DNA from: a virus
Virus record (IMG/VR): IMGVR_UViG_3300029955_000013
Span: 1 to 64,000 of that record
DNA: 64,000 nucleotides
Strand: one strand, 5' to 3'
Shown here one piece after another: positions 47,003 to 61,657 of the stretch. Position numbers and translations under genes: made by a program. The notes beneath the pieces were generated by a model that was given only the letters and a program-made list of their open reading frames with translations, ran no database searches and was not told the origin of the DNA. Positions within the stretch are counted from its first letter, which is position 1; each line of letters starts with the position of its first letter.

Positions 47003-47010
47003 TACATTTG
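47003..47010 (+). promoter_or_regulatory. Bacteroidota-type -7 promoter of leader/tRNA operon
   Basis: TACATTTG preceded by long A/T tracts. Confidence 0.7.
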
Positions 47011-47055
47011 TACTCTAAATAGCAAATAAGCAAATTTAAAGTATATAAAATATAT

Positions 47056-47148
47056 ATGAACAACAAGGTAAACATATTGATATTAGGCACCGAAGGCACA
47101 ACAGAGATTCTCGAAGGAATCCACTGGCTCCCAGCTCTATGTTCGTAA
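47056..47148 (+). CDS. Putative attenuator leader peptide MNNKVNILILGTEGTTEILEGIHWLPALCS
   Basis: 30 codons between promoter and terminator; 3' end overlaps predicted antiterminator; codons match downstream tRNAs. Confidence 0.7.
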   Translation: MNNKVNILILGTEGTTEILEGIHWLPALCS

Positions 47149-47170
47149 GTTTACATTATGAATAAATTCG

Positions 47171-47205
47171 AAGCCTGGGAATAATCACCCAGGCTTTTTT
47201 ATTTT
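47171..47205 (+). terminator. Intrinsic terminator (attenuator) immediately before first tRNA
   Basis: AAGCCTGGG-AATAATCA-CCCAGGCTT then TTTTATTTT. Confidence 0.85.
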
Positions 47206-47208
47206 AAC

Positions 47209-47284
47209 GGGAAAATCGCATAGTCAGGTCTATTGCCTCTGCCTTCCAAGCAGGTGTTCGTCGGTTCGAATCCGTCTTTTCCCT
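47209..47284 (+). tRNA. tRNA-Gly(TCC)
   Basis: GGGAAAA/TTTTCCC acceptor, U73, TCTGC-CT TCC AA-GCAGG. Confidence 0.85.
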
Positions 47285-47341
47285 CACACGGGGCTCAGAT
47301 ACAAAGGTATCGTCTGCCCATGTTCTTTGACATATTATTAA

Positions 47342-47420
47342 GCCATGGTGGCACAGTGGTCGACTGCACCGGTCTTGTAAACCGGAATACAACACGTGGG
47401 TTCGAATCCCACCCATGGCT
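47342..47420 (+). tRNA. tRNA-Thr(TGT)
   Basis: GCCATGG/CCATGGC, CCGGT-CT TGT AA-ACCGG. Confidence 0.9.
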
Positions 47421-47426
47421 CATTAT

Positions 47427-47498
47427 CATCCTGTAGTCTAACGGTTAGGACGTCAGATTTTCACTCTGGAGATGGGGGTTCGATTCTCCCCAGGATGG
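47427..47498 (+). tRNA. tRNA-Glu(TTC)
   Basis: CATCCTG/CAGGATG, TCAGA-TT TTC AC-TCTGG. Confidence 0.9.
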
Positions 47499-47531
47499 CG
47501 ATTTTTAAAAGCTAATTTATAAATTCGTTTT

Positions 47532-48251
47532 ATGGAAAATCTTTATGACATTAACGGCCTCGTTTTCTGGAGCAAGAGGGAGATACAGTTTAGGAGGTAT
47601 GCGCAGGAATTTTTTTCGAGGGAGATAAGTGACCTGCTCATATTTGAGAACAAGAGCTGGTCTTTCCATGAGACTGAAGGCCCGCTGCTCATTCCTAAGT
47701 CCTTAATCAACGCCGATTATACCAACGAGGACATTTGGGTACAGGAAGTAATTGGCGACGATAACGAGCTCGTATTGAGGCCTGAGACTACTCCAAGCTC
47801 TTTCCGGTATGCGGTTTCTTTGATAAATAACTATGTTTCGCTCCCACCTATGGTTGTGGAGCAGACCGGCAAGTCATTCAGGCGGGAGCAGGATCAGGTC
47901 TCAAAGAACATGAGGCTCAAGGAATTCTACCAGCAGGAGTTCCAGTGCATTTATGCGGCGGACACCTTTAATGATTATCAGTCTAAGATATTGCCCGGCT
48001 TGGTGGCGGTTTTCCAAAAGCTGATTGGTAAGCCTTGCAGGATGGTAGATAGCGACAGGCTGCCTTCTTACAGCTTAAGGACTGTCGATGTGGAGGTGAA
48101 TAATGGTAACAAGTGGATGGAGGTTTGTTCTGTTTCAAAACGTACGGATTTTCCTATTCAAGTTAAGTTTGGTTCCAAGGAACCGAAGCCTATGCTGGTT
48201 CTCGAGATCGCGATAGGCCTTGACAGGTGCGTTTACAATTACTTTTTATAA
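47532..48251 (+). CDS. glyS: Minimal glycyl-tRNA synthetase-like protein (alpha2-type catalytic core only, 239 aa)
   Basis: LRPET, motif 2 GKSFRRE..RLKEFYQQEFQ, TVDVE, motif 3 VLEIAIGLDR; ends before the anticodon-binding domain. Confidence 0.75.
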   Translation: MENLYDINGLVFWSKREIQFRRYAQEFFSREISDLLIFENKSWSFHETEGPLLIPKSLINADYTNEDIWVQEVIGDDNELVLRPETTPSSFRYAVSLINNYVSLPPMVVEQTGKSFRREQDQVSKNMRLKEFYQQEFQCIYAADTFNDYQSKILPGLVAVFQKLIGKPCRMVDSDRLPSYSLRTVDVEVNNGNKWMEVCSVSKRTDFPIQVKFGSKEPKPMLVLEIAIGLDRCVYNYFL

Positions 48252-48268: not shown

Positions 48269-48339
48269 GCATTTGTAGTTCAGTGATAGAACATGCCTCT
48301 CGTAAAGGTAAAACAGCAGTTTGATTCTGCTCTAATGCT
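48269..48339 (+). tRNA. tRNA-Thr(CGT), slightly degenerate
   Basis: TGCCT-CT CGT AA-AGGTA; T-loop TTTGATT; one acceptor mismatch. Confidence 0.7.
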
Positions 48340-48396
48340 CATAAAGTTTTATTACTCTGGGGATTTCGATGTACATTTGCTTTGAAACATTATTCT

Positions 48397-48915
48397 ATGT
48401 ACAACATAAACAAGCGAGCGTTGGATATAAGGAAGATGTTTGGTGAGATTGCAGACATGAACAGTCCTTATGCTGGAACTCTGGATCTCGTTGTTAGGGA
48501 GGAAAAGATTTTCTGCATACTTGCCGAGTCGGTTAGCCAAACGCAGGCGAACTTCATGGTTCAAGAAATCTCAATGTCTTTCTTCCAGGACACGAAGAAC
48601 ATGTTGCTGTCGCAGGCCAAACTGATGCAGAATTTCATAGACACTTATTCTTCGTACGGTCCTGAGTTTAAGATAATAGAAGGGCAGCGAATGGCGTACC
48701 AGAATATGCTTAATTCAATAAATGGTTTGATCGAAGATGTTGACTCACATATAGAATTGTACACTCAATATATTGCGACCAACAACATAATAAAGAAAAG
48801 TATGAAGAAGACTATGAGGGAATGGAAGAAGAACGGTTTTCCTGATCGTTTTGCCGACTCGAGAGATATTCAGATAGTTCCAGACATAATGGGTAATGGT
48901 ACCACACCACCATAA
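48397..48915 (+). CDS. Hypothetical protein
   Basis: ATG at 48397 downstream of TACATTTG (48372). Confidence 0.6.
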   Translation: MYNINKRALDIRKMFGEIADMNSPYAGTLDLVVREEKIFCILAESVSQTQANFMVQEISMSFFQDTKNMLLSQAKLMQNFIDTYSSYGPEFKIIEGQRMAYQNMLNSINGLIEDVDSHIELYTQYIATNNIIKKSMKKTMREWKKNGFPDRFADSRDIQIVPDIMGNGTTPP

Positions 48916-48923
48916 ATTAAAAT

Positions 48924-48995
48924 GCTCCGCTCTTCTAACGGTTAGGATGTGACCCTCTCACGGTTACGATACGGGTTCGATTCCCGTGCGGAGTA
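48924..48995 (+). tRNA. tRNA-Glu(CTC)
   Basis: GCTCCGC/GCGGAGT, TGACC-CT CTC AC-GGTTA. Confidence 0.9.
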
Positions 48996-49010
48996 CAAAA
49001 AATAATTGAA

Positions 49011-49208
49011 ATGGGTTGGAAATGTACGCAGATTTTGACGAGACAGGAGGCGATAAATTTGATTGTTAGGTTGTCTGATGTGAGCATCTTGGAGAGCCTT
49101 TCTGACGACGATTTGTCAAACGTGGTTGACGGATTTTGTGGAGATAACATGGATATGCCTTATTATGGCTGCAACTTCATGGTCTCCGATGTTATAGATA
49201 ATGATTAA
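49011..49208 (+). CDS. Hypothetical protein
   Basis: ORF filling inter-tRNA space. Confidence 0.55.
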   Translation: MGWKCTQILTRQEAINLIVRLSDVSILESLSDDDLSNVVDGFCGDNMDMPYYGCNFMVSDVIDND

Positions 49209-49212
49209 ATAA

Positions 49213-49284
49213 GCAGGAATAGCACAATGGCCAGTGTACGGGTTTGCCAAATCTGATATGGGAGTTCGATTCTCCCCTCCTGCT
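49213..49284 (+). tRNA. tRNA-Gly(GCC)
   Basis: CGGGT-TT GCC AA-ATCTG, U73. Confidence 0.85.
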
Positions 49285-49364
49285 CTGTGTGTGCAAATAA
49301 AGTTCGAATCTTTACCTTATGTACCGGTTAGGGTAGGGTTAGTTCAATTGGTAGAACGGCACAG
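49285..49364 (+). ncRNA. Circularly permuted tRNA-like RNA (T-arm precedes D-arm; YrlA-like topology)
   Basis: TGTGC...T-arm TAAAG-TTCGAAT-CTTTA...CCTTAT/GTAGGG stem...D-arm GTTC-AATTGGTA-GAAC...GCACA closing stem. Confidence 0.6.
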
Positions 49365-49368
49365 TGTC

Positions 49369-49441
49369 GGGCATGTAACTCAGCGGTTAGAGTAGTTCGC
49401 TCATAACGAAAAGGTCGTAGGTTCGATTCCTACCTCGCCCA
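49369..49441 (+). tRNA. tRNA(CAT), probably Ile2 (lysidine type) rather than Met
   Basis: TTCG-CT CAT AA-CGAA; GGGC/GCCC-A acceptor with C4-G69; no initiator features. Confidence 0.8.
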
Positions 49442-49461
49442 CCTTAAAAGCAAGAATACGA

Positions 49462-49671
49462 ATGGATAAAAATGAGTTAAAGAAGGTTATTTACAAGACA
49501 CAACCGATTGCGATTTTGCTTAATGTCAGGAAAGACGGATTGTCTTATGCTGCGAGTGTCGATAACAAGATAGTAAAGTTCTTTATACCATACGATGAGA
49601 TTGGTGAAGTGGTTTGGTTTGCAGAGATGCCGGCAAAGTTGCTGATAAGGTATTTGATAGATGTTGATTAA
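49462..49671 (+). CDS. Hypothetical protein
   Basis: Clean ORF. Confidence 0.6.
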   Translation: MDKNELKKVIYKTQPIAILLNVRKDGLSYAASVDNKIVKFFIPYDEIGEVVWFAEMPAKLLIRYLIDVD

Positions 49672-49680
49672 ATATTTTTT

Positions 49681-49962
49681 ATGGAAGCCAAAGAGAAAAG
49701 ATTTCAGGGCCCTAATGGCGAGTTCGTACCGAGTAAACCGCTCAAGAAAGGCTACCTTTCTATAAAGCAAGCTGATGAAATATGTGAGTGGGTTTATTGT
49801 CACGACTCGTTTAGCGACGAAGAGAAGTTAAAAATGATACTTGGGGTGGAGACGCTGATCGGGGACATAATATCTGAGAACCTTGGAGACTTCAATGTGG
49901 CTTATGTTCCAACCTGGTCAACAAAGTTTAATGACAAAACGCCAATATCGTCTAACGGTTAG
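49681..49962 (+). CDS. Hypothetical protein (3' end runs into tRNA-Glu)
   Basis: Stop codon lies in D-arm of next tRNA. Confidence 0.55.
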   Translation: MEAKEKRFQGPNGEFVPSKPLKKGYLSIKQADEICEWVYCHDSFSDEEKLKMILGVETLIGDIISENLGDFNVAYVPTWSTKFNDKTPISSNG

Positions 49963-50013
49963 GATTGCTCGTTTTCAGCGAGAAAGATGTCGGTTCGAAT
50001 CCGTCTATTGGTT
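49941..50013 (+). tRNA. tRNA-Glu(TTC)
   Basis: GCCAATA/TATTGGT; CTCG-TT TTC AG-CGAG; D-arm like the other Glu tRNAs. Confidence 0.75.
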
Positions 50014-50098
50014 CAAAACTTGGAGGAATCTGGGTCTATCCTGAATTAATAAAGTGCGAGCAAGTGTACATATCTCGCCGCAATAAAGTAAGAGGGAT

Positions 50099-50170
50099 CG
50101 TGGATTAGCTCAGTGGTAGAGTAGCAGGCTGATGGACTGTTGGTCGGTGGTTCAAATCCACCATCCACAA
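50099..50170 (+). tRNA. Atypical tRNA-Ile(GAT)
   Basis: Good D and T arms; loop CT GAT GG, weak anticodon stem, C1-A72 mismatch. Confidence 0.55.
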
Positions 50171-50252
50171 CAAACCAGATAGGAATGTCTGGTGTGCTCT
50201 GGTAATGAGAGTGTGAATAAGCGCGAATAAAACACACTGGTAAGAAACAGAG

Positions 50253-50324
50253 TGTACTATAGGGTAGTGGTAGCCCGTCGGCATCAACAGCCGAAGATCT
50301 CAGGTTCGATTCCTGGTAGTGCAA
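50253..50324 (+). tRNA. Atypical tRNA with CAA anticodon (Leu) on Gln-like body
   Basis: TGTACTA/TAGTGCA-A; TCGGC-AT CAA CA-GCCGA; short variable loop. Confidence 0.6.
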
Positions 50325-50330
50325 CAATTT

Positions 50331-50669
50331 ATGGCTGAATATTATCATATAACTAATAGTAAAAACCTTAGTAATATCCTTACGGAAGGCCTGATACCAA
50401 ACAAGGGATATGGCATGAGCCGTAGGTTAATAAAGCATAACAAAAACTTTATTACGGATAATATTGCCTACATAATTCATAAGCAGATAGGCTTCAAAAG
50501 GTTTATTACAAAAGATTATGTAGTTCTTAATATCGAGCCATACGGTTTAAATATCAAAGAACACACTTATTGGGATCATATAAACCATAAACATGAAGTT
50601 GCAAAGCATGAGTTTGTTTGTTTTGACGTAATATTACCGAACAAAATTAGTGTAATGCAGAACAATTAA
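50331..50669 (+). CDS. ADP-ribosyltransferase/Tpt1-like NAD-binding domain protein
   Basis: YYHIT...NL..IL.EGL.P; C-terminal E.......I.P..I. Confidence 0.5.
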   Translation: MAEYYHITNSKNLSNILTEGLIPNKGYGMSRRLIKHNKNFITDNIAYIIHKQIGFKRFITKDYVVLNIEPYGLNIKEHTYWDHINHKHEVAKHEFVCFDVILPNKISVMQNN

Positions 50670-50678
50670 AATAATTTT

Positions 50679-51551
50679 ATGAACACACGTATTGCGCCTT
50701 CCCCAACAGGCTTTTTTCATCTGGGGACTGCACGGACAGCTTATCACAACTGGCTTGTGGCTCGCGCAACGGGTGGCTTGTTCACCCTGAGGATCGACGA
50801 CACCGACGACGACAGGAACGATGAGGGTCATGTACAGATGATCTACGACTGCATGGACTGGCTTGGTCTCGATTATGACGATACTTTCAGGCAGAGCGAC
50901 CGGAACAAGATTTATGTTGATTACGCTCAGTTCCTTTTGGACATTGATTATGCTACTGTTGCCGACAATGGTGCTATAATGTTTAGATTTCGTGATGAAG
51001 ATTTAATTCACTTTTTTAACGACACTATCGCCGGCAAGATAGAAACTAAGCAGGATGACATCGACAATCTTAGGAGCCTTGTTCTTATGAAGTCTGATGG
51101 TAACCCTACTTATAACTTCTGTTCCATTGTCGACGACTACCTAAGCAAGATAGACTGGATAATTCGTGGCGCCGATCACATAAAGAATACGATAAAACAG
51201 CTACATGTCATAGAGGCAGTTCAGTCTTTGGATAATCCGGTTAATTATTGGAAACCAAAGTTCACCCATGTGGGCCTTATACACGACATGAGCAACAAGA
51301 AGCTGTCCAAGAGGACCGGTGCGAAAAGCGTGCTCGACTACAAGAACGAAGGCGTAAAGCCGGGTGCTCTGCTCAACACGCTGCTTAGGATTGGCTGGGC
51401 GCCTACCGACCCGAACTTCGACTCGAAGCATAAGATCGTGACGAAGGACATGGCGGTGGACATGATACTCAAGGAAGGTAACTTCAGGTCTGCTCCCGGT
51501 AAGTTCGATCCGATGAAACTCGCATACTACAATAAAAAGCATAGTAATTAA
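50679..51551 (+). CDS. gltX: Minimal glutamyl-tRNA synthetase-like protein (catalytic domain only, 290 aa; GluRS/GluQ family)
   Basis: TRIAPSPTG..HLGT, LRIDDTD, QSDR..Y, PTYNF..VDD, IRGADH, KLSKR; no anticodon-binding domain. Confidence 0.85.
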   Translation: MNTRIAPSPTGFFHLGTARTAYHNWLVARATGGLFTLRIDDTDDDRNDEGHVQMIYDCMDWLGLDYDDTFRQSDRNKIYVDYAQFLLDIDYATVADNGAIMFRFRDEDLIHFFNDTIAGKIETKQDDIDNLRSLVLMKSDGNPTYNFCSIVDDYLSKIDWIIRGADHIKNTIKQLHVIEAVQSLDNPVNYWKPKFTHVGLIHDMSNKKLSKRTGAKSVLDYKNEGVKPGALLNTLLRIGWAPTDPNFDSKHKIVTKDMAVDMILKEGNFRSAPGKFDPMKLAYYNKKHSN

Positions 51552-51579
51552 AAAAATGTCGCACATCAGTGCGACACTC

Positions 51580-51650
51580 GCCCGTATAATTTAATGGAAG
51601 ACTAATCCTTTGGTATGGGATATGCATCAGTTCGATTCTGATTATGGGCT
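51580..51650 (+). tRNA. tRNA-Thr(GGT)
   Basis: GCCCGTA/TATGGGC; ATCCT-TT GGT AT-GGGAT; weak D stem. Confidence 0.7.
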
Positions 51651-51666
51651 CATAAAATTTCAATTA

Positions 51667-51837
51667 ATGCAGTTATCGTTTGGTATTGGTGATACGGTTT
51701 ACGCGAACGTTGGTGGCCAGGAGATGAAAATATTGGATGTCTCTGGCAACACGTATATTTGTCAGGTAATTGTTGACGGTAAGACGGAAAAGGTTAACTT
51801 CGAAAAGGGAACAGTACACAAGAAAATAAGGAAATAA
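51667..51837 (+). CDS. YodC/DUF2158-like small protein
   Basis: F.IGD.V....GG..M...C; start at 51667 because the tracked start overlaps a tRNA. Confidence 0.6.
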   Translation: MQLSFGIGDTVYANVGGQEMKILDVSGNTYICQVIVDGKTEKVNFEKGTVHKKIRK

Positions 51838-51891
51838 TTTATAAATGGAAAACATTCACGTCTCGTCTGGATAGCTCATCATTGATCAACA

Positions 51892-52095
51892 ATGATGACT
51901 ACAATTACAAGAACTCGATTTTGGAGAGTCGAGTGGATCCATAGAAATGGATACCGTGCACCACATTCGTTTGTGGAAGCAAAAAACAAGAAAGAGGCTG
52001 TGAAAATAGCCCAAGATAATTCCAGGTTTACTGATTTTCCCAAGACTTGGTCCTTTAATCTTGTCCGCTTAGTGGAGAAGGGAGAGGAAGAATAA
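51892..52095 (+). CDS. Hypothetical protein
   Basis: VEA.NK.EA pattern common in small phage proteins. Confidence 0.55.
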   Translation: MMTTITRTRFWRVEWIHRNGYRAPHSFVEAKNKKEAVKIAQDNSRFTDFPKTWSFNLVRLVEKGEEE

Positions 52096-52213
52096 ATGAC
52101 TTAAAACCGAACGGGTTTGTGGACAAGCAACAACCTGCTCCTGGCCAGCAATGGTATATGGAAAAACCACTTTAAATATGTTGTCGTGAAAGGGGGCGGT
52201 GACCCTTTCAAAT

Positions 52214-52284
52214 GCGGGAGTAGCACAATGGTAGTGCACGGGCTTGCCAAGTCTGATACGAGGGTTCGATTCCCTTCTCCCGCT
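52214..52284 (+). tRNA. tRNA-Gly(GCC)
   Basis: Canonical GCGGGAG/CTCCCGC-U; TT GCC AA loop. Confidence 0.93.
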
Positions 52285-52319
52285 CAGGGTTAAAAAGAGT
52301 TTAAAATAAAAACAATTCT

Positions 52320-52592
52320 ATGAGTAATTTAAAGATACCTTCTTTTGAAGAGGTATTAGCGAATGATGGCAAGGCTGAAGACCTTGAGCTTATTAAGATA
52401 GAAAAGCAATCTCAGCTTGACACCCAGGTCAGGACCATAGAGGTTAAGATAGCAAGGGCACGCAAGCTTTTTGCGAAGTCTGTGATCGACCCGAAGATTG
52501 ACACTTTGGCGATTGCCTCAGAACTAAAGATATTGACTGCGGAACTCGAGCTTGCGAAGGAAATAAGAGAGGCGGTTTTCCCAAAAAATTAA
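52320..52592 (+). CDS. Hypothetical coiled-coil protein
   Basis: Clean ORF. Confidence 0.6.
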   Translation: MSNLKIPSFEEVLANDGKAEDLELIKIEKQSQLDTQVRTIEVKIARARKLFAKSVIDPKIDTLAIASELKILTAELELAKEIREAVFPKN

Positions 52593-52596
52593 TTTG

Positions 52597-53376
52597 ATGA
52601 GCGTTATTGATGAACTTTGGAAACCTCAGCAAGAATCCGTTCACGATTATGACGACACTGTAAAAGAACTGCATCCGTACAAGGATTATATCCAGGAGAA
52701 GTATCGGCCGGAGCCTTGCGATTACAACAATTCGCCGCCTCGTTTTTATTATGGTTATGGCAACAGTTCTATTTTAATCACCAAGCAGCGTGGAAGGCGT
52801 AGGCATCTTGGGAAGCATATCATCATCAAAAAGACGCTTAAAAGCACCTATCTCGATTTTGAGCTTCCTGACAAACTTTACGTTACTGTAGAGGGTTTGA
52901 TCGTACATGAAAGCGATTTCTATTGTACTGATGACTCGTTCATGGAGGCGGAATACTTTACTAACAAGTCCATTTACCTGCAGTTTAAAGACGTTAGTTG
53001 CGACATCAACTTAATAGCTTATTTCTTGACCAATAAGGAGTATGATGATTACGAGAAGGAAGACTATCGGTATAGGAGCATGGGCATGATGAGTCCTGTG
53101 CTGGAAATTTACAAGTATCTGCACGAGGGTCGTTCGAAGATAGAGATCGTTTACTGCAATACCTTCTTTGATGATCCGAACAAGCATGTCATAAATAACA
53201 TGTTAAATACGAGTAAGTTTTTGATAGACCCGGTGGCCCCAATCGTACAAAGTGTTTGTGATCTCGGCCGGCATCTGTTCGTCAGCTCTAATGGTTACAT
53301 CTGTCACTGGAAGTTTTATACCAGATTAGATACAGACTTACTGATAAGACATGCTAAAAAACTTGTATTTCTATGA
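52597..53376 (+). CDS. Hypothetical protein
   Basis: Long ORF coupled to next gene. Confidence 0.6.
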   Translation: MSVIDELWKPQQESVHDYDDTVKELHPYKDYIQEKYRPEPCDYNNSPPRFYYGYGNSSILITKQRGRRRHLGKHIIIKKTLKSTYLDFELPDKLYVTVEGLIVHESDFYCTDDSFMEAEYFTNKSIYLQFKDVSCDINLIAYFLTNKEYDDYEKEDYRYRSMGMMSPVLEIYKYLHEGRSKIEIVYCNTFFDDPNKHVINNMLNTSKFLIDPVAPIVQSVCDLGRHLFVSSNGYICHWKFYTRLDTDLLIRHAKKLVFL

Positions 53377-53864
53377 ACATATTTGTGCTCGGCGGTACCA
53401 AGTCCGGTAAATCCACCATTGCGAAGTATATTGCTGATACGTATGGCTTCAAACTCATACAGATGTCCAAGCCGCTGAAAGATAGGTTCGAGCGTGGGGA
53501 TCTGAACATAGACGTTTACACGAACATGTTGGTTAAGACCACGCTTAGTTACATAGGTTCCAAAGAGAGGCGTAAATCTGAGTATTTCTTGAATTACGCT
53601 TTGCTGGAAATGGGGCCTAATAATGTGTTCGACGGTGTGCGGAACCCTCGTGACTTCATGAGGCTTTTCAATCACTTCGAGGACATGGTTATAAAGATGC
53701 CTGGCGAAGGCATAAATGCTTTTGAGGTGGATGGCTTAAGAGCTATATTCGGCTGCCACAGGTATATGTACAAGTACATGAGCGCAAAGCCGCTGATCAA
53801 GTACCATTACGATCTGGAGCTATCCATAGAGGAGAATTTCCAGAACAACAAAATAGTCATTTAA
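53373..53864 (+). CDS. P-loop nucleoside monophosphate kinase-like protein
   Basis: GGTKSGKST Walker A; DGVRN..D. Confidence 0.7.
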   Translation: MNIFVLGGTKSGKSTIAKYIADTYGFKLIQMSKPLKDRFERGDLNIDVYTNMLVKTTLSYIGSKERRKSEYFLNYALLEMGPNNVFDGVRNPRDFMRLFNHFEDMVIKMPGEGINAFEVDGLRAIFGCHRYMYKYMSAKPLIKYHYDLELSIEENFQNNKIVI

Positions 53865-53873
53865 AAGTAGCTT

Positions 53874-55085
53874 ATGGTTTCTAAATTCGCAATGGACGAC
53901 GCTTATGCTGTACAGGCAGACATTATAGAAGGTTGGTACACGAAGTACAAGTCCATGGATTTGCCTAACGGCTTCAAGAGGGTGTTGTATAGCTTTTCTA
54001 AAAGCGGCGTATCTGTTGCTCTCGGCAGGAATGAAAAATACGGGTATTTCATCTGCGCTTACGGTCAGGGCGAATATTCTTTCGTGATGACAGAAGCTGA
54101 TAGCGAGAACATTCCTGCCGAGGAAGTCTTTGACGTTAAAACTAAGGAAGGATTTATAAAGCATTTCGAGAGGTTTTGCAGGGAGTATAATTACTTGGAT
54201 TTCGAGGTAGTCGATAATGTAAGAGCCTATGATGACACGACGCTTTTCTGCCCGGCCGGGATGCAGAAGTATAAGAACGTGTTTAAGGCGGAGTGCCCAG
54301 AGGATGCTGACAAGGCCGTAAGGCGTCAGTACATGAAGCTAAATGAGAGTGTTATAGCAAATATTCAACCTTGCATAAGGATGAACGATTTGGATGATAT
54401 TGGTGACGGCACGCATTTGCTTTACTTCAACATGATGGGCCTTTTTGCATTTAGGACTCCTGGCTTTGGTGTTAGGCATGCTGTAAAATTTTGGCTTGAT
54501 TTCCTTGAGACGATCGGCTTGAAACCGGATCTTGTTACTGTCCACCCAGACAAGCAAGATTGGATATTTTATTACCAAGATGAAACGGTAGAGCAGAAAT
54601 ATGTAGACGATTTTCTTCAGTATAACGGGCCTGATTTCCTGCTCGATCCAGATTGCACGTGGACTGATGGCGAGATTGGAGGTTACTGTACGGAGTTCTA
54701 CATAAAGGACGTGGAGATAGGCAACATTGTGAATCCGCTTGGTAACTGCATAGATTGCGGCTTTGGCCTCGAGAGGATTCTGTATATACTCAATAATGAG
54801 TTGACTATCGCAACCGATTTGGACACGCTTAAGGAAACCATACTTAAGATATTAGACAGCGGTTACACGCCATCTAATCTCAAACAGGGCTATGTTTTAA
54901 GGAAGCTGTTGAGGGAGTTCGTCAAGAAGGGCGGCGAGATGGATCACGAGGTGTTTCTCGACGAGAAGGATAGGCAGCGAAAAATATATGACAGGTGGCT
55001 GCTGCTCAAGGATAAGCACAAGGACAAGAGCCCTGAATGGTGGTATGATACGCACGGGATTGATTTGAAAATGATAAACGGTTAA
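53874..55085 (+). CDS. alaS: Minimal alanyl-tRNA synthetase-like protein (no editing or C-Ala domains)
   Basis: D.TTLFCPAGMQ, QPCIR.NDLD.IG...H..YF.M.G, GYCTEF, IDCGFGLERI, PSN..QGYVLRKLLR, YDTHG. Confidence 0.85.
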   Translation: MVSKFAMDDAYAVQADIIEGWYTKYKSMDLPNGFKRVLYSFSKSGVSVALGRNEKYGYFICAYGQGEYSFVMTEADSENIPAEEVFDVKTKEGFIKHFERFCREYNYLDFEVVDNVRAYDDTTLFCPAGMQKYKNVFKAECPEDADKAVRRQYMKLNESVIANIQPCIRMNDLDDIGDGTHLLYFNMMGLFAFRTPGFGVRHAVKFWLDFLETIGLKPDLVTVHPDKQDWIFYYQDETVEQKYVDDFLQYNGPDFLLDPDCTWTDGEIGGYCTEFYIKDVEIGNIVNPLGNCIDCGFGLERILYILNNELTIATDLDTLKETILKILDSGYTPSNLKQGYVLRKLLREFVKKGGEMDHEVFLDEKDRQRKIYDRWLLLKDKHKDKSPEWWYDTHGIDLKMING

Positions 55086-55088
55086 TTT

Positions 55089-55406
55089 ATGACCAAAGCG
55101 CCTTTTGACGTCTTCTTTACTTTTGATATAAGTTTGAATATTGTGTCTTATGATTCGGATAGTGATACAATGAATTGGTTTAGCCGGTCTGTTCGTAATC
55201 AGATTAAGCTTCACGAGGAAGTTGGAAAGAAGATGGAAGACAGAGGCTATCTTTATGGCTGGTATGAAATATTGGAGACTGATTTTAACTTTCTCACACC
55301 GGCTAAAGAGTCGATCCAGGATAAAAAGGTAAAAGTAAAAGTCGGCGCCTATAAGGATGAACAGTTTATGTATTCTAAGAAAGAATTGGAAAAAATGGTA
55401 AGTTGA
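55089..55406 (+). CDS. Hypothetical protein
   Basis: Clean ORF. Confidence 0.55.
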   Translation: MTKAPFDVFFTFDISLNIVSYDSDSDTMNWFSRSVRNQIKLHEEVGKKMEDRGYLYGWYEILETDFNFLTPAKESIQDKKVKVKVGAYKDEQFMYSKKELEKMVS

Positions 55407-55416
55407 TAAGTAAGAT

Positions 55417-55492
55417 GGGCGATTACTCCCTCACCCTTATAAGGTGTTGAAAGGATAGTTGGTACAGTTCGGTTCGATCCCGAAATCGCCTA
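55417..55492 (+). tRNA. Non-canonical tRNA-Ile(TAT) lacking a conventional D-arm
   Basis: GGGCGAT/ATCGCCT-A acceptor, CACC-CT TAT AA-GGTG, T-arm TTCGG-TTCGATC-CCGAA; D-loop-like AGTTGGTA lies after the anticodon arm. Confidence 0.7.
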
Positions 55493-55494
55493 CA

Positions 55495-55971
55495 ATGATT
55501 TACGATGAATTGTGTGGAGAGATTTATGACGAGGTGATAAAGTTTAATATTTTTAAACAGTACCTCGAGAATTACGATGTAGATTTGCCTAAGTTAAGAG
55601 TTGAGACGCTCGATTTTTGTTCACAGACAGTCGATGGCAGGGATGCGGATTATATGGCCAGGATTGCCGCGGCAAAGCCGAAGATTTATTTCGCTACTCT
55701 TATAAAGAGCAAGATACTTGGCGAGCTCGTTAAAATCAAGAAACGTCAAGATTTACTCGAGAAATGGCAGGCATCAGGCATATTGGATGGCTTACACCAG
55801 GGAGTTAACACTAATATTGTTGCATTGATGGAAAGCCAGTCGGAGCAGAGTATTACTGAAAACAGGAGCGCTGAGTTCTATTGGGACACAGTAAGGCTTC
55901 CGCTCGTAAGGAGTGTGTTAATTGATTCTTTAATCAAAGAAGCAGAGCATGACCAGGAAGAAAAGGTATGA
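55495..55971 (+). CDS. Protein with C-terminal segment resembling the N-terminus of T4-like major capsid proteins
   Basis: LLEKW..SG.LDGL.......ALMESQ...LPLVR; true start 55495. Confidence 0.55.
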   Translation: MIYDELCGEIYDEVIKFNIFKQYLENYDVDLPKLRVETLDFCSQTVDGRDADYMARIAAAKPKIYFATLIKSKILGELVKIKKRQDLLEKWQASGILDGLHQGVNTNIVALMESQSEQSITENRSAEFYWDTVRLPLVRSVLIDSLIKEAEHDQEEKV

Positions 55972-56329
55972 ACTTACGAAATCGTCTGCCGATAAATTGA
56001 CAGACGCCATTGGGTGCAAGATAGATTTTAAGATAAAAGAGCTTGTAGTTTATCTTAACTTAAATAAGTTCGTTACATTTGCATCTTGTCAGGGACATAG
56101 GAGTCACGGCTTGCGTTACCCTTGGATTGATTTCGACATAAAGTCATACAATGGTTTATTCGATTTTATAAAGAGGCACAAAATCGTCGGCCTTGAAATA
56201 AAGCTCTTGGAAAGCGGTGATGGTTTCGTTATGAGGCTACAACCGGTAGACAAGACCAGGATAAAGGCGGCGAGGGATATTTTTCACATGCTTGAGAAGA
56301 AGTTAAGTAAAAGTTTTTGGAATAAATAA
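55949..56329 (+). CDS. Hypothetical protein
   Basis: ID..I..LV..LN.....T.ASC.GH...PWI.F conserved-looking motif. Confidence 0.6.
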   Translation: MTRKKRYELTKSSADKLTDAIGCKIDFKIKELVVYLNLNKFVTFASCQGHRSHGLRYPWIDFDIKSYNGLFDFIKRHKIVGLEIKLLESGDGFVMRLQPVDKTRIKAARDIFHMLEKKLSKSFWNK

Positions 56330-56380
56330 GTGATTCTTAGTTTCATCGCTGTAGGGATTCTATTAATCAAAACAGTTAAA

Positions 56381-56734
56381 ATGAAAGATCTAAGAATGGC
56401 CTTTGAGGGTTTGAGGAAAAACCCAGTATTCGTTGAAAATTTCTCTTGTGTAGAAGACGTCTTTAATGGTTTTGTCACATCGGAAGAACAAGAGCAGGGA
56501 GTAGAGATACTATATGCTGCTTACCATAGACCAGATTGGGAAGGCTATGCTACAGTTTACTTCTACAATGCGATCTCCGGAAAGTATTACGAGGTACACG
56601 GCTCACACTGTTCCTGCTACGGCTTGGAAGGTCAATGGGTCCCAGAGGAATTATCGTTAGAGGGATTGCAATACATCCTCGACAATGGTAATTCACACGA
56701 GTATGACGACTTTAGAGAAATCTTGGGAAGTTAA
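56381..56734 (+). CDS. Hypothetical phage protein
   Basis: YEVHGSHCSCYGLEGQW motif. Confidence 0.7.
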   Translation: MKDLRMAFEGLRKNPVFVENFSCVEDVFNGFVTSEEQEQGVEILYAAYHRPDWEGYATVYFYNAISGKYYEVHGSHCSCYGLEGQWVPEELSLEGLQYILDNGNSHEYDDFREILGS

Positions 56735-56787
56735 AAAAATGGTATCAAAGTATTGGGTGAGATTCCCAGTATTCCCTGATACCAAAC

Positions 56788-56860
56788 AGGCCTGTATATC
56801 ATCGGTTAGATAGCCATGCTGATAACATGGAAGCAGTTGGTTCGACTCCAACCTGGCCTA
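56788..56860 (+). tRNA. tRNA-Ile(GAT)
   Basis: CCATG-CT GAT AA-CATGG; AGGCC/GGCCT-A. Confidence 0.88.
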
Positions 56861-56875
56861 CACTAAAAGAATTTT

Positions 56876-58042
56876 ATGAAAGTAGATGTTAACCAGTTCA
56901 AGGAGATACCTTCTCCTCACGGAGTTGGATTGTGTGTCTACGGCGGCATGAGCGATGAAATCAAGGCATGGACCGAGTATCACGATATAAAGACAGAATT
57001 CCACGGAAGATTTACTAATTTTCTGTTTGACGGCCAGGATCTCGATAATTGTTTCAACGAGGGGAAGGTGTACGATTACGTGGATGGTTTTTCGCCGAAT
57101 CTTAATAAGCATTTGCACCTCGGTCATGCGTCTAATTTTGTAATAGCGAAAGCGTTGCAGAACATGGGAATTGGCAAGAAGTACATTGCGAACCTTGGTG
57201 ATACTGTTACTGGAGCTGTTGATAAGTTCGAGGCGCTCGAGGCTTTGAGTGACCTTTGGGACAAGTTTGATTACAAGGTCGATAAGATTTACTTCGCTAC
57301 ACAATTGGTAGGCGATGTTGAGATGGAGGATGGTACTGGCGATTATGTCGGCACGAAGGTTTTCGACGTGAACGGTCAGAAGATAGTTGGCCAGAAGAGC
57401 AACGGTAATTATAGTTACTTTTACCATGACGTCGTTCTCGCGAGCAAGTTGAAAGGCGAGACTCTGTATATGACCGGTTTCGAGCAGAAGGAGCACTTTG
57501 AGAGCTTGAAGTGTCTTTACCCCGGCACTAACCACCTGATGCTTGGCCTCGTGACGATCGACGGCAGGAAGATGTCGAGTAGCGAGGGTAACGTGATTAT
57601 GTTGGCGGACGTCATGGACACGCTCAGGACCGAATTTGGAGACGATCACCTTGCTTGGAATGTTTTGAGTGGTTATATACTCAAGTCAGACGTGGACTCG
57701 GTTAAGGACATCAATATGGCCAACATAGACAACCCACGACAGTCTCTCGGTTTGTACTTCAGTTACACGCTCGCAAAGTTGAAGAGCGCCGGCATGAATG
57801 TGGAGCTGAAGGAAAAGTTTAATTCTTTTCGGATGCAGTACAAGTTCTTGAAGGCAAAGACGAACCTGCAGCCGAGAATATTGTTCGACGGCATTTTCGA
57901 TGTTGCAAAGAAGATTAGTACTCTATACGTAAACCACCACATAGCAGGCAACAAGAAAAACCAGGAGCTGTACCAGCCTTTGATGGAGGATTTGCTGCTC
58001 GGCATGGTAAAGCTTGGCATGTTTGACGTAGATAAGGTTTAA
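56876..58042 (+). CDS. argS: Shortened arginyl-tRNA synthetase-like protein (388 aa)
   Basis: SPNLNK.LHLGH, KS.G...Y...D, EQ.EHF, KMSSSEGNVI, DALR-like G.Y..YT.A. Confidence 0.85.
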   Translation: MKVDVNQFKEIPSPHGVGLCVYGGMSDEIKAWTEYHDIKTEFHGRFTNFLFDGQDLDNCFNEGKVYDYVDGFSPNLNKHLHLGHASNFVIAKALQNMGIGKKYIANLGDTVTGAVDKFEALEALSDLWDKFDYKVDKIYFATQLVGDVEMEDGTGDYVGTKVFDVNGQKIVGQKSNGNYSYFYHDVVLASKLKGETLYMTGFEQKEHFESLKCLYPGTNHLMLGLVTIDGRKMSSSEGNVIMLADVMDTLRTEFGDDHLAWNVLSGYILKSDVDSVKDINMANIDNPRQSLGLYFSYTLAKLKSAGMNVELKEKFNSFRMQYKFLKAKTNLQPRILFDGIFDVAKKISTLYVNHHIAGNKKNQELYQPLMEDLLLGMVKLGMFDVDKV

Positions 58043-58149
58043 AGATAGTGCACCGGGATGGGATACCGGAACAGAATGCGATCCTCAAAGAATATAGCAA
58101 TTAGGCCGCCTGTGGCTATGTGTTAAATGGTATGAGGCATCCCAACAAT

Positions 58150-58223
58150 GGGGAGGTGGCCAAATGGTGAAGGCACTTGACTGATAATCAAGAGATGTGT
58201 GAGTTCGAGCCTCACTCTCCCCA
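58150..58223 (+). tRNA. tRNA-Ile(GAT)
   Basis: CTTGA-CT GAT AA-TCAAG; GGGGAGG/TCTCCCC-A. Confidence 0.88.
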
Positions 58224-58368
58224 CGAGGCAATAGCAGGTAGCTCATGTACGTACCCTTCTGCAGACGTGGTCAAATCGTGAGCGAAGCATCAATCGTACC
58301 TGTCCACTGTAACGTGCAGTAGTAGCTGACTAAAAATACGAGACAAGTTGCGGAGAGACGCAACAAAC

Positions 58369-58447
58369 GGTGAGGTGATGGAATTGGCAGACATTGGGGA
58401 TAGGATTCCCCTGCGCAAGCGTGGAGGTTCGAGTCCTCCCCTTACCA
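58369..58447 (+). tRNA. Leu-type tRNA body with aberrant 6-nt anticodon loop (TAGGAT)
   Basis: TGATGGAATTGGCAGACAT D-arm, variable arm GCGCAAGCGT, A73; anticodon unreadable. Confidence 0.55.
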
Positions 58448-58462
58448 CTTAAATTTAACGTT

Positions 58463-58729
58463 ATGACAAGTTTATTGAAGTTTAACAAGTCTGTTACCGA
58501 CAGGTTTACGCCTGCCGAGATCGGTGACATGTTGGTTGGCGAAAAGAAGTATGCCTTAGAGGTTGAGGGTGGTAACCGCGAGCCTACGGGCATCTTTAAG
58601 GACGAGGATGGCGACCTGTATGTTACCATACATGGTTACAAGGTTGGCCGCACAGACCTCGAGGTAGAGTTCGTGGTATTTCCACAATATGACAATCACA
58701 CAATTTTTCAAGCGAGGGTACAGATTTAA
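58463..58729 (+). CDS. Hypothetical protein
   Basis: True start 58463 (tracked start overlaps tRNA). Confidence 0.55.
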   Translation: MTSLLKFNKSVTDRFTPAEIGDMLVGEKKYALEVEGGNREPTGIFKDEDGDLYVTIHGYKVGRTDLEVEFVVFPQYDNHTIFQARVQI

Positions 58730-58812
58730 TGGTAAAGAAGATATTGAGATTTTTCGGTTTGTGTAAACCAGAGAGCGTAGAAGATTTTAAACAGCGTATA
58801 TCCAATAGGTAA
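58729..58812 (+). CDS. 27-aa peptide MVKKILRFFGLCKPESVEDFKQRISNR
   Basis: TAATG-coupled at both ends. Confidence 0.45.
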   Translation: MVKKILRFFGLCKPESVEDFKQRISNR

Positions 58813-59234
58813 TGGCAAACTATTTCACGGTTCGGGATCTTATTGAGTTCATAACGAATAACAACATCCCAATGGATGCAAGGATTTATATGCAGCGTGT
58901 GGAAGACGTCTATTTCAACGGAGTGGATATTGGTGGGTGTGGCGGCTATGTGGACGATAACGGTGTTCGCAGTTGTTTTCCGCCTGGTTCTAAAGCTGAT
59001 GGGTGGAAGACTGTCAAGAAAGAGGGTTATGCTTATCGTAAGGCTTTGGAGTTGAACAGAAGGGTAGATGCTGGAGATTTTCACAACAAGGAAGATTTCC
59101 CGGATCTGGAAGACCCTGAGGTTTTAAGGTCGAGCGAGGAAAGGCTCGAGGAGCTCAAGGAACAGTATTATCCTTGCTTCTCTCCGGTTTACTATGCTGA
59201 TCAGAAGGATTTGTTTTTGGATGCACACTATTAA
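58812..59234 (+). CDS. Hypothetical protein
   Basis: Clean ORF. Confidence 0.65.
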   Translation: MANYFTVRDLIEFITNNNIPMDARIYMQRVEDVYFNGVDIGGCGGYVDDNGVRSCFPPGSKADGWKTVKKEGYAYRKALELNRRVDAGDFHNKEDFPDLEDPEVLRSSEERLEELKEQYYPCFSPVYYADQKDLFLDAHY

Positions 59235-59245
59235 ATAAAAATTAT

Positions 59246-59464
59246 ATGGGATTGGTAGTTAACGTTACTTCTAAAGAGATTATTAGTGGCAAGTTTATGA
59301 AAACGCTCATGAAGTTGCAGGGTTATATTCAGGAAGCCAAGGGTGACATTGAGGTTAGCCAGAGTTACAGTGCTAAAGCTGTGCACTCACGGATGGAGCG
59401 GATCATGGAACTTATGGAAGAAGACATGACCGCATTGGCAAACTCGATACAATTACCAGAATGA
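59246..59464 (+). CDS. Hypothetical protein
   Basis: Clean ORF. Confidence 0.55.
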   Translation: MGLVVNVTSKEIISGKFMKTLMKLQGYIQEAKGDIEVSQSYSAKAVHSRMERIMELMEEDMTALANSIQLPE

Positions 59465-59706
59465 ACAAGTTTCTGCAAGAGGATTTTAAGGAAATTATTG
59501 ATCAGTTGTCAGAAAAGCTTGATCCAGGTAGCAAAAAAGTATTGCAAGAGGTGATAATGGATAATCTTGTCGAAATAAAAGAGAAATATCGTCTTTACAA
59601 GAATTCAGGCTCTGGCAGGATTAGCCTTAATTATACCCGTATTGCTATTGATTACTGGAGCCAAGTGCCTCATTTGATTGAGTTTCTTGAAAAATTTTTA
59701 GAGTAA
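59461..59706 (+). CDS. Hypothetical protein
   Basis: ATGA overlap. Confidence 0.55.
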   Translation: MNKFLQEDFKEIIDQLSEKLDPGSKKVLQEVIMDNLVEIKEKYRLYKNSGSGRISLNYTRIAIDYWSQVPHLIEFLEKFLE

Positions 59707-59707
59707 T

Positions 59708-59780
59708 GGCACTGTAGACCAACGGGAGAGTCAACGGCTTTAAACCCCGTCAAGTGTCGGTTCGAGTCCGACCAGTGCTA
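59708..59780 (+). tRNA. tRNA-Leu(TAA), short variable loop
   Basis: ACGGC-TT TAA AC-CCCGT; GGCACTG/CAGTGCT-A. Confidence 0.8.
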
Positions 59781-59794
59781 CAAAAAATAAAAGC

Positions 59795-60328
59795 ATGCCG
59801 CAATCTACGATTGAGTTAAGGGATAAGTTTTGGCACAGGGACGAAGATGGTGTTCCAACGTCGGATGGGATAGAGGAGTGTGAGGACATACTAAGGAAGT
59901 ATGGCGTTACATTTGCTCGTGGGTACATAAGTACCACCGGAATCGATGTTGACATATCTGAAGAACTTAACGATGCCATCGAGTTCTTGGTTTATGAGTG
60001 GGACTATGCTTTCGACGGTTACGTCCAGGACAGGAGTCCGGAGAAAGAGACAGTATCAATATCCAAGGAACTTGCGATAGAGATCATAAAGGTCATAACT
60101 GATAAGACGGATAACGGTTATGAGTGGCGCAATCTCGCAGGCATAGAGTATGAGTTGTTCAAGTTCATGTTCATAGAGGAGATGCCTTATAACTCATACA
60201 AGGACCTAAGCGACGACGAGCTGCGTAAAGCAGTTCACATCTATGCGAAGGACAATCAGTACAGGTGGTATGGTCAGCCCATAGATCAAATAGAAGACGT
60301 GGAAGTAAATGCGGAGGATTTTGGTTAA
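59795..60328 (+). CDS. Hypothetical protein
   Basis: Clean ORF. Confidence 0.6.
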   Translation: MPQSTIELRDKFWHRDEDGVPTSDGIEECEDILRKYGVTFARGYISTTGIDVDISEELNDAIEFLVYEWDYAFDGYVQDRSPEKETVSISKELAIEIIKVITDKTDNGYEWRNLAGIEYELFKFMFIEEMPYNSYKDLSDDELRKAVHIYAKDNQYRWYGQPIDQIEDVEVNAEDFG

Positions 60329-60434
60329 TAAAGTCGGTGGCATTGTTTGACTTGTGATTTTTTAGTGTAATAAAGTCGGTGCGAATTCTGGATTCGAGTT
60401 GTAAACCGAATAATAAAAACTAAAATTGAAGCAA

Positions 60435-60791
60435 ATGTTTAAGTATGTGTCTATTGACGAGTTAGTTGGTAAGGTCTTTAAAGAAGTAACTGCAAGTGTT
60501 GACGAAATGTATTTTATCGCGGAGACGGGAGAGAGATACACGTTCTATCACGACCAGGACTGTTGTGAGTGTGTTAGCATAGAGGATATTGATGGAGACA
60601 TCAGTGATCTTGTTTGCACTCCGATCACGATGGCTGAGGAGACTGTAATGGCAGCAACGGAAGAAGAGTGTAGTGAAAGTGGCACCTGGACTTACTACCG
60701 TTTTGCGACTGTAAGAGGTTACGTTACGGTTAGGTGGTTTGGTTCTTCTAACGGCTATTATTCTGAGGGCGTTTCGTTCGTGAAGTGTTAA
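60435..60791 (+). CDS. Hypothetical phage protein
   Basis: H.QDCCE.V.IEDI, TWT.Y...T..G.V..RW.G.SNGYYSE. Confidence 0.75.
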   Translation: MFKYVSIDELVGKVFKEVTASVDEMYFIAETGERYTFYHDQDCCECVSIEDIDGDISDLVCTPITMAEETVMAATEEECSESGTWTYYRFATVRGYVTVRWFGSSNGYYSEGVSFVKC

Positions 60792-60820
60792 GATGTTTGG
60801 GGTGAAACTCCCCATAAATT

Positions 60821-60893
60821 GGTCCTGTAGCCCAATGGCAGAGGCGATAGGCTTAGAACCTATTTAGTGTCAGTTCGAGTCTGACCAGGACTA
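60821..60893 (+). tRNA. tRNA-Leu(TAG), short variable loop
   Basis: ATAGG-CT TAG AA-CCTAT; GGTCCTG/CAGGACT-A. Confidence 0.88.
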
Positions 60894-60908
60894 CTTTAAA
60901 ATGAGCAA

Positions 60909-61067
60909 ATGGGTGTTGTAATTTTCTTTGCGTTATTGTTAGCAGCTTTTTTGATCGCTATGGTTATCGTTGCTTATGATTTTTACTGCGAGAGGAAGGA
61001 GAAAGATGGCAACTTGACATGGAAGCAATATTTTGATAACAAGAAACCTGATATGGGTGACTATTAA
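60909..61067 (+). CDS. 52-aa single-TM protein (not in ORF track)
   Basis: MGVVIFFALLLAAFLIAMVIVAY... Confidence 0.55.
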   Translation: MGVVIFFALLLAAFLIAMVIVAYDFYCERKEKDGNLTWKQYFDNKKPDMGDY

Positions 61068-61095
61068 CGTTTAATATTGCTCTATAAATAATTTT

Positions 61096-61557
61096 ATGAA
61101 AGATTTTGTTAAGAAGATCGACTCTATAGATCAGTTTCCGCCAGAATGTCTTGCGGAATGTTTGCCTGATTTTTTAAAGAAGTCTCGTTCGAAAGATAAT
61201 GAGCTTGAGTTGGACGATCTGATAGAGGTCATAGTTTGTTATGGCGATCGCGAGGAGTCAATCGAATCGCTTTACGTTAATTTCACTTATAGCTACACAA
61301 CAAAGAACTGGTTGTTCCAAGCTTTCGGTAGCCAGTATCGTAAGGGTGATTTGCTTTGTGATGAGGAAAATGAAAACTACATAACGGTTACAGACATTGC
61401 TGCGAAGAATAAGTACAATGAAGAGCGGCATGATAAGAAGAAGGAGGCTCGCATAAGGCAGTGGGGTGATTTGTTTTCGAGGCACACGAAAGAAGAGTTA
61501 CTTGTAGTGCTGAGCCAAATTGATTTCCCTAAAAGCATTATCGGCAAGATAAGATAG
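61096..61557 (+). CDS. Hypothetical protein
   Basis: Clean ORF. Confidence 0.6.
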   Translation: MKDFVKKIDSIDQFPPECLAECLPDFLKKSRSKDNELELDDLIEVIVCYGDREESIESLYVNFTYSYTTKNWLFQAFGSQYRKGDLLCDEENENYITVTDIAAKNKYNEERHDKKKEARIRQWGDLFSRHTKEELLVVLSQIDFPKSIIGKIR

Positions 61558-61570
61558 TTATAAAAATGTT

Positions 61571-61642: not shown

Positions 61643-61657
61643 CAATAAATTATTCAC

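Follow-up and report, generated by a model that had tools for sequence, protein, structure and literature searches.

The stretch of DNA analysed here (64 kb; hereafter the window) is the first part of an 83.9-kb virus contig. This contig carries portal, tail and structural genes together with a co-oriented translation island, in which about 30 tRNA genes are accompanied by a tmRNA gene, an RNA ligase gene and genes for four cut-down homologues of aminoacyl-tRNA synthetases. The tmRNA gene (window positions 43335-43799; Rfam, 60.8 bits) has a TAnnTTTG motif 50 nt upstream and is directly followed by a GIY-YIG/NUMOD homing-endonuclease-like gene at 43839-44762. From this type of promoter motif only, the host is presumed to belong to the Bacteroidota. 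The four synthetase genes stand among the tRNA genes at 47532-48251, 50679-51551, 53874-55085 and 56876-58042 and encode proteins of 239 to 403 aa: a class II core (239 aa), a GluRS catalytic domain (290 aa), an AlaRS-like protein (403 aa) and a class I-like protein (388 aa). Relatives of the class II core with 42-67% identity occur across more than 100 giant-phage contigs. Since its homologues are found in uncultured phages of 400-560 kb, the present contig is regarded as a fragment of a giant-phage genome.

Within the island, a TAnnTTTG promoter, a 30-codon ORF, a strong intrinsic terminator and a tRNA-Gly gene follow one another in this order. The ORF is referred to below as leader 1, and the genes behind the terminator as block 1. 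The features of this region are:

47003..47010, + strand: promoter -7 element TACATTTG of the Bacteroidota-type TAnnTTTG, 53 nt ahead of the leader ATG; putative function
47056..47148, + strand: leader 1 ORF of 30 codons; it starts with MN, as most cassettes do, and lies in A/T-rich, unstructured surroundings; presumably translated
47068..47154, + strand: long imperfect hairpin across the ORF in the ribosome-free fold (region 1:2 pairing, candidate anti-antiterminator)
47074..47121, + strand: putative regulatory codons 7-22, ILILGTEGTTEILEGI, in which 12 different triplets encode Ile, Leu, Gly, Thr and Glu
47126..47136, + strand: region 2, formed by codons 24-27 at the 3′ end of the ORF; its sequence is complementary to that of the terminator 5′ arm
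47140..47164, + strand: small hairpin between stop codon and terminator, inside the antiterminator helix
47170..47205, + strand: intrinsic terminator with a 10-bp stem (47170-47197; 6 G-C pairs), an 8-nt loop and a T-tract, about -17.5 kcal/mol
47209..47285, + strand: tRNA-Gly(tcc), the first gated gene, beginning 4 nt past the T-tract
47342..47499, + strand: tRNA-Thr(tgt) and tRNA-Glu(ttc)
47532..48251, + strand: class II aminoacyl-tRNA synthetase core (239 aa; family G, H, P, S, T), with which the protein genes of block 1 begin
48269..63937, + strand: rest of block 1, with tRNAs, mini synthetases and RNA ligase
62801..63937: RNA ligase family gene (Pfam RNA_ligase, 4.5e-17), the last gene of block 1
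63949..63974, + strand: next strong terminator, the probable end of the unit

The coordinates in the preliminary description of this locus proved to be correct, both for the larger elements (TACATTTG at 47003-47010, the ORF at 47056-47148 and the tRNA-Gly(tcc) start at 47209) and for the short segments of the proposed alternative pairing (TCCCAGCT at 47129-47136, TTCG at 47142-47145, AGTTTA at 47148-47153 and the complementary stretch at 47163-47180). A scan for the sigma-70 consensus gave hits at chance level. The terminator of leader 1 is the strongest terminator-like site across 44-64 kb and is terminator-like on the minus strand as well. In the ribosome-free fold, it stands by itself beside the 47068-47154 hairpin, and the RNA from 47020 to 47210 is more stable than 200 of 200 shuffled versions (z = -3.56). 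The 4-nt gap between the T-tract and tRNA-Gly is too short for a separate promoter, and no promoter motif was found between the leader promoter and this gene. Further downstream, block 1 contains internal TAnnTTTG motifs, so the extent to which the block depends on the leader is uncertain, and the distal tRNAs may have promoters of their own. At the far end of the block, the strong terminator comes immediately after the RNA ligase gene (62801-63974 for the two together).

The tRNAs encoded between 48269 and 63937 are Thr, Glu, Gly, Met/Ile2(cat), Glu, Ile, Leu, Thr, Gly, two Ile, a questionable Pro(agg) and two Leu, in addition to atypical ones. Interspersed protein genes code for the GluRS-, AlaRS- and class I-like mini synthetases and the RNA ligase. 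Codons 7-22 of leader 1 are indeed 16 consecutive codons, spread over 12 triplets, for Ile, Leu, Gly, Thr and Glu only, and every one of them has a cognate anticodon in the block behind, where ATA and CTC rely on atypical tRNAs. The broader claim that all tRNAs of the window behind the leader serve these five amino acids was borne out for 15 of 17 standard ARAGORN calls; the exceptions are Pro(agg) and Met(cat), the latter of which may be Ile2. The Pro(agg) call at 58369-58448 is weak (ARAGORN; Rfam, 35 bits), and the tRNA-Ile with the TAT anticodon at 55401-55493 is found by ARAGORN only at a relaxed threshold. The tRNA at 62012-62115 has a length of 102-104 nt and an insert in the anticodon region; ARAGORN reads it as Val(aac) with an insert and not as the Leu(gag) that had been proposed. 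Leader 1 contains ATA, CTC and CCA codons, which may help to identify the atypical tRNAs of block 1. When the leader was compared with 6,940 other small ORFs from this genome and the related loci, none of them had a 16-residue run within the amino-acid set of the block. The longest run in these ORFs was 13 residues for the set of the block and 10 residues for the strict five-letter set.

Beyond the window, the array continues with Leu(caa), Cys, two Trp, four Ser and two Met tRNAs. The preliminary description had regarded other tRNA types in the full array as evidence against a meaningful codon match. The outcome was the opposite, as the Trp and Ser tRNAs have a Ser/Trp-rich leader of their own. 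This second cassette is built like that of leader 1 and consists of (contig coordinates):

67668-67831: second cassette, with TATATTTG at 67668, ORF, terminator and tRNAs
67694-67771: leader 2 ORF of 25 codons, in which codons 5-15 read SSYSSSWSWSS
67794-67828: leader 2 terminator
67832: start of the first tRNA-Trp; two tRNA-Trp genes are followed by four tRNA-Ser genes

The predicted antiterminator of leader 2 (-21.6 kcal/mol, versus -14.2 kcal/mol for its terminator) is stronger than that of leader 1. An unbiased scan for terminators at most 40 nt from a tRNA gene returned exactly two sites in the 83.9-kb contig, and both follow a TAnnTTTG motif and an ORF of 25-30 codons. The tRNAs thus appear to be sorted into blocks that each lie behind a codon-matched cassette. 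The contig tRNAs without a cassette directly ahead are Leu (caa, at 64952), Cys and the two Met.

No orthologous copy of leader 1 was found. Peat metagenomes contain near-identical DNA, and contigs from four peat metagenome runs that cover 46900-47600 were identical to the window, with zero variants of leader or terminator. A blastn search of 45440-48300 against 50,697 phage records returned fragments of tRNA or synthetase genes only, an exact search of IMG/VR for the leader 1 terminator gave no match, and the 497-aa protein encoded upstream of leader 1 had no relatives in IMG/VR. The comparison with relatives used 110 loci around homologues of the mini synthetase, and then the tRNA regions of the contigs of five relatives. 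The same scan identified 14 further cassettes in four related giant phages. Recurrence of a small ORF plus hairpin ahead of tRNA arrays in related phages, and leader codons that track tRNA content, had been named in the preliminary description as the observations to look for, and both were made: the composition of each leader follows the block behind it, as listed here (leader, then tRNAs behind it).

K-rich leader: three Lys
SSSRSS.SS leader: Arg, Ser, Arg, Ser
SRSRSSRS leader: Ser, Arg, Ser, Ser, Arg, Ser
YEGYYYEEE leader: Tyr, three Glu, two Tyr
QQQQQQ leader: five Gln
QQVQQQQ leader: four Gln
QVQPTQQPDQDPD leader (Q/P/D): Pro, Asp, Gln, Asp, Pro
HKHFSKSNKWFSHS leader (H/K/F/W/S): His, Lys, Trp, Phe, His, Phe, three Lys
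IYIGYIAEGGYEAG leader (I/Y/G/A/E): three Glu, two Tyr, three Gly, Ile, two Ala
IINISTAIIAGGAG leader (I/A/G): Ile, Gly, Met/Ile2, Gly, two Ala
SYSYCYYGSSSSS...YGYESEEGS leader (S/Y/C/G/E): Glu, Ser, Tyr, Gly, Cys
Two leaders, T/L/V/N/M and N/L/T/V: Leu, Asn, Thr, Val, Ile, Met

The I/Y/G/A/E and I/A/G leaders belong to two related phages and have nearly the same terminators. Where the Glu and Tyr tRNAs lie behind the leader, the leader contains Y and E; in the other phage, where they lie ahead of the leader, it does not. A prospective test was possible for one leader at the end of a locus, of which the first 19 codons were available. Before the DNA behind it was obtained, these codons led us to predict Asn, Leu, Thr, Met and Val tRNAs. 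The tRNAs subsequently found were Leu, Leu, Asn, Ser, Ile, Asn, Cys, Val, Thr, Val and Thr, so that the prediction was largely met, with Met absent. Across the relatives, the cassettes together cover nearly all amino acids.

Altogether, 16 cassettes could be compared for their geometry. The leader ORFs have 18-43 codons, the stop codon lies 19-27 nt before the terminator, and the terminator lies 6-30 nt before the tRNA; a TAnnTTTG motif is located 24-121 nt ahead of the ATG in 12 of the leaders. For one leader, that of phage G003, the terminator was assigned manually. A terminator before Thr tRNAs in the 430-kb phage G005 was considered and rejected as a cassette, as it has a 76-aa Lys-rich ORF ahead and no leader. 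The terminator scan revealed no cassettes in the regions of G005 that it covered (L121-L123), which hold many tRNA blocks, nor in locus L119 (G004:C1:16500-25000, minus strand), which holds Phe/His, Lys x4 and Arg/Ser blocks. In these blocks of G004 and G005, either the gate is absent or the terminators are of another form.

The relatives' tRNA regions also showed two unusual types of tRNA. In many relatives, a tRNA with a CTA anticodon (an amber suppressor, labelled Pyl by ARAGORN) precedes the gene for the mini class II synthetase homologue by 100-2000 nt (loci L006, L012-L014, L018-L022, L047-L049, L055, L060-L063 and L074). It is conceivable that TAG is read as a sense codon in these phages or that tRNA and synthetase form a dedicated suppressor system. 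In addition, ARAGORN reported tRNAs with a four-base anticodon (ggaa) in two giant phages, at L030:12061-12135 (the same as L121:18375) and at L116:2199. One of them stands directly before three tRNA-Thr genes. Possibly, these are frameshift-type or otherwise unusual tRNAs.

The specificity of the match between leader and block was assessed against a null set of the 6,940 other ATG-started ORFs of 15-50 codons in the same DNA. For the best 8-residue window within the amino-acid set of the own block, 15 of the 16 leaders were in the top 4% of this null set, and most of them ranked at 0.2% or better. When leaders were permuted among blocks, the observed summed z of 68.4 compared with 4.3 ± 8.0 for the permutations, the maximum of which was 45.4; none of 20,000 permutations reached the observed value. 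Because several cassettes in two of the phages are homologous to each other, fewer than 16 independent events underlie this figure. Shared ancestry nevertheless does not account for the specificity, because the blocks differ.

Six leaders were folded in detail and displayed the same layout: the ORF ends in codons (region 2) whose sequence complements the terminator's 5′ arm; the arrangement of a small hairpin within the antiterminator helix, as described for leader 1, is the same in the other five. The terminator stems vary among cassettes, and region 2 varies along with them. Own pairs of region 2 and terminator arm had a mean duplex energy of -9.9 kcal/mol, versus -6.5 kcal/mol for cross pairs, a difference reached in none of 20,000 permutations. 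Furthermore, two homologous leaders differ in the terminator arm and show concomitant changes in region 2. In two leaders of phage G001 (Q/P/D and Q), no antiterminator was predicted within the ORF. For leader 1, the preliminary description had claimed two mutually exclusive hairpins. Its simple duplex (-8.7 kcal/mol) is the weakest antiterminator compared and is equalled by 17% of random 39-nt windows, and by itself it is therefore within chance. It is nonetheless correctly positioned, and the position-specific model described below gave the result that the claim predicts.

In this model, a ribosome with a 30-nt footprint occupied the nascent transcript at a stage when the 3′ arm of the terminator had yet to be synthesised. 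The pairing of the terminator arm with region 2 was used as the measure, in place of a generic measure of the terminator arm being paired with anything, which was flat for leader 1 and one relative. For leader 1, the pairing was 0.17 with codons 2-5 in the A site, about 0.7 with codons 6-20, and 0 from codon 21 onwards. For leader 2, it was 0.8 with codons 2-12, and no such pairing (0) remained from codon 14 onwards. The stretch over which a stalled ribosome would promote read-through thus falls together with the matched codons. In the 16 leaders taken together, 59% of the residues in the permissive window were matched, versus 37% elsewhere (Fisher p = 6e-6). In these footprint computations, a ribosome stalled on the regulatory codons permits the antiterminator, and a ribosome at the stop codon prevents it.

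We propose, with a probability of about 0.8, that leader 1 is part of a transcription attenuator of the ribosome-mediated, leader-peptide type, which controls entry into a block of genes for phage tRNAs and cut-down synthetases. This interpretation, which had already been put forward for the locus, is supported by the co-variation of leaders with tRNAs, by that of region 2 with the terminator, and by the modelled geometry. That the leader is translated and that read-through responds to tRNA supply we infer from the anatomy and the comparison among phages. In the proposed mechanism, transcription would start from the TAnnTTTG promoter and the 30-codon leader would be translated at once. If codons 7-22 are read without delay, the ribosome would reach the end of the ORF and cover region 2 (47126-47136), upon which the terminator (47170-47205) would form and transcription would end 4 nt short of tRNA-Gly. 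If matching charged tRNAs are scarce, slow decoding of any of the codons 7-22 would stall the ribosome upstream, and the free region 2 would pair with the 5′ arm of the terminator and allow the RNA polymerase to enter the tRNA block. RNase P and other processing enzymes would then release the tRNAs. The products would be the very tRNAs whose shortage is sensed, which would make the cassette a negative-feedback supply controller for that set. Since the sensed molecule is the output, such a loop should keep the supply of the tRNA set near a set point. The second cassette would do the same for the Trp and Ser tRNAs, and the relatives would have one cassette per tRNA block. The position of the RNA ligase gene also fits the idea that tRNA repair is part of the gated unit.

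Conceivably, as the preliminary description had suggested, the same attenuator could have a specific role in counter-defence, where cleavage or depletion of cognate host tRNAs by anticodon nucleases or similar defences triggers a rescue regulon made up of replacement tRNAs, mini synthetases and RNA ligase. The gated block does hold an RNA ligase (62801-63937) and the four cut-down synthetases, and the tmRNA gene is located just upstream. T4 RNA ligase repairs tRNA-Lys that has been cut by PrrC, and host tRNAs lost during infection can be replaced by phage tRNAs. The sequence, however, does not separate nuclease damage from phage codon demand or host shut-off, and any lack of decodable tRNA, simple demand-driven feedback included, would agree with the evidence from the leaders. 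Moreover, the cassettes cover nearly all amino acids, far beyond the known nuclease targets, so that general supply control fits better than nuclease sensing. We consider a role restricted to counter-defence unlikely. A wider version, which we offer as a tentative conjecture, is that codon-matched cassettes regulate the translation islands of giant phages in general. The loss of one host tRNA set, whether through defence nucleases, host shut-off or demand, would be detected by a cassette dedicated to it, which would switch on the matching tRNAs, minimal synthetases and RNA ligase. The phage would thereby sense the host tRNA pool at the level of single codons and repair it selectively.

Two other explanations dispense with the ribosome-mediated gate altogether. 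The small ORF and the terminator could be an independent unit, either a gene for a small protein or a short RNA that ends at 47205, with the tRNAs transcribed from other promoters or by constitutive read-through and with the codon match arising by chance or as a by-product of composition. The strength and the bidirectional appearance of the terminator, the antiterminator duplex of leader 1, which taken alone is within chance, and the promoter-like motifs inside the block would all be compatible with this explanation. It is, however, very improbable in view of the mere 4 nt between T-tract and tRNA-Gly, with no promoter motif from the leader promoter to this tRNA, the block-specific matching in 16 cassettes that no permutation reproduced, the largely successful prospective prediction of tRNAs, and the co-variation of region 2 with the terminator arm. 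The other explanation is an RNA-only sensor like a T-box, in which the in-frame codons would serve as specifier triplets that bind the anticodons of uncharged tRNAs without translation. This would likewise tie tRNA status to the choice between terminator and antiterminator upstream of translation genes. A cmscan search of 43000-64000 at E <= 1, however, returned tRNA, tmRNA and chance matches only, and no Trp_leader, His_leader, Leu_leader, Thr_leader, T-box or other Rfam leader family. The matched triplets lie in one frame that runs from an ATG to a stop codon at a constant 19-27 nt before the terminator, which indicates reading by a ribosome, and the 8-16 specifiers for up to seven amino acids would be without precedent among T-boxes. 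An RNA-only sensor is therefore hardly credible, and ribosome-mediated attenuation remains the preferred reading.

The presence of dozens of tRNA genes in large phages, and the way in which these are put to use, still calls for an explanation. If the attenuator reading is true, phage tRNAs would be a demand-regulated supply, controlled block by block, rather than constitutive baggage. The succession of promoter, mini-ORF, terminator and tRNA would offer a simple signature for annotating tRNA operons in uncultured phages, and the leader may help to assign the identities of atypical tRNAs in the block behind it. The attenuator reading also leads to testable predictions about the depletion of host tRNAs in the course of infection. 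Being compact and modular, cassettes that sense specific tRNA pools could furthermore serve as reporters.

Among known systems, T-box riboswitches resemble the phage cassette in that tRNA status decides between terminator and antiterminator upstream of translation-related genes. They differ in that they bind one tRNA directly, without translation, through a conserved T-box sequence, whereas the reading-frame features of the phage leaders argue for a ribosome. A long tRNA array is found in the trn operon of Anabaena sp. PCC 7120, where it is silent until translation is impaired (PMC8421152). This cellular array, which is not phage-borne, resembles the proposed role of the phage cassettes in providing accessory tRNAs on demand under translational stress. 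Its control has been attributed to the transcriptional repressor TrcR (PMC10272220), and the words attenuator, leader and terminator are absent from the report on the array (PMC8421152). In a full-text search of the literature outside subscription journals, no description of leader-peptide control of tRNA genes was found for phages or cells. On the literature searched, this would be the first report of leader-peptide attenuation for tRNA genes.

In phage T4, the tRNA cluster adjoins a homing endonuclease and an RNA ligase, as in the present contig; we know of no leader-peptide gate described for the T4 tRNA genes. The pheM leader of Escherichia coli pheST is an example of attenuation of genes for the translation apparatus, and the gated phage block likewise holds synthetase homologues; pheM senses one amino acid and controls synthetase rather than tRNA genes. 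The closest parallels in layout are the enterobacterial attenuators ilvGMEDA (Ile/Leu/Val), thr (Thr/Ile), trpL, hisL, leuL and pheL. Like the phage cassettes, these combine a short ORF close to the promoter, which carries a run of regulatory codons, with an intrinsic terminator and with an alternative antiterminator that has its 5′ strand at the end of the ORF. They also share the 1:2 pairing in the untranslated RNA and the sensing of several amino acids per leader. To our knowledge, all leader-peptide attenuators described so far regulate genes for amino-acid biosynthesis or synthetases. Leader 1 departs from this, as the first genes that it would gate are tRNAs, with the synthetase homologues after them. 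The phage leaders also differ from the enterobacterial ones in that they are phage-borne, with up to 12 triplets for five to seven amino acids and one cassette per block, and in that the enterobacterial attenuators gate biosynthetic enzymes, whereas the phage cassettes would gate tRNA genes and mini synthetases, so that their output would replenish the sensed molecule itself. Together, the sequence comparisons support the view that a known kind of control, ribosome-mediated attenuation, may act here on a new class of genes, the tRNA genes.
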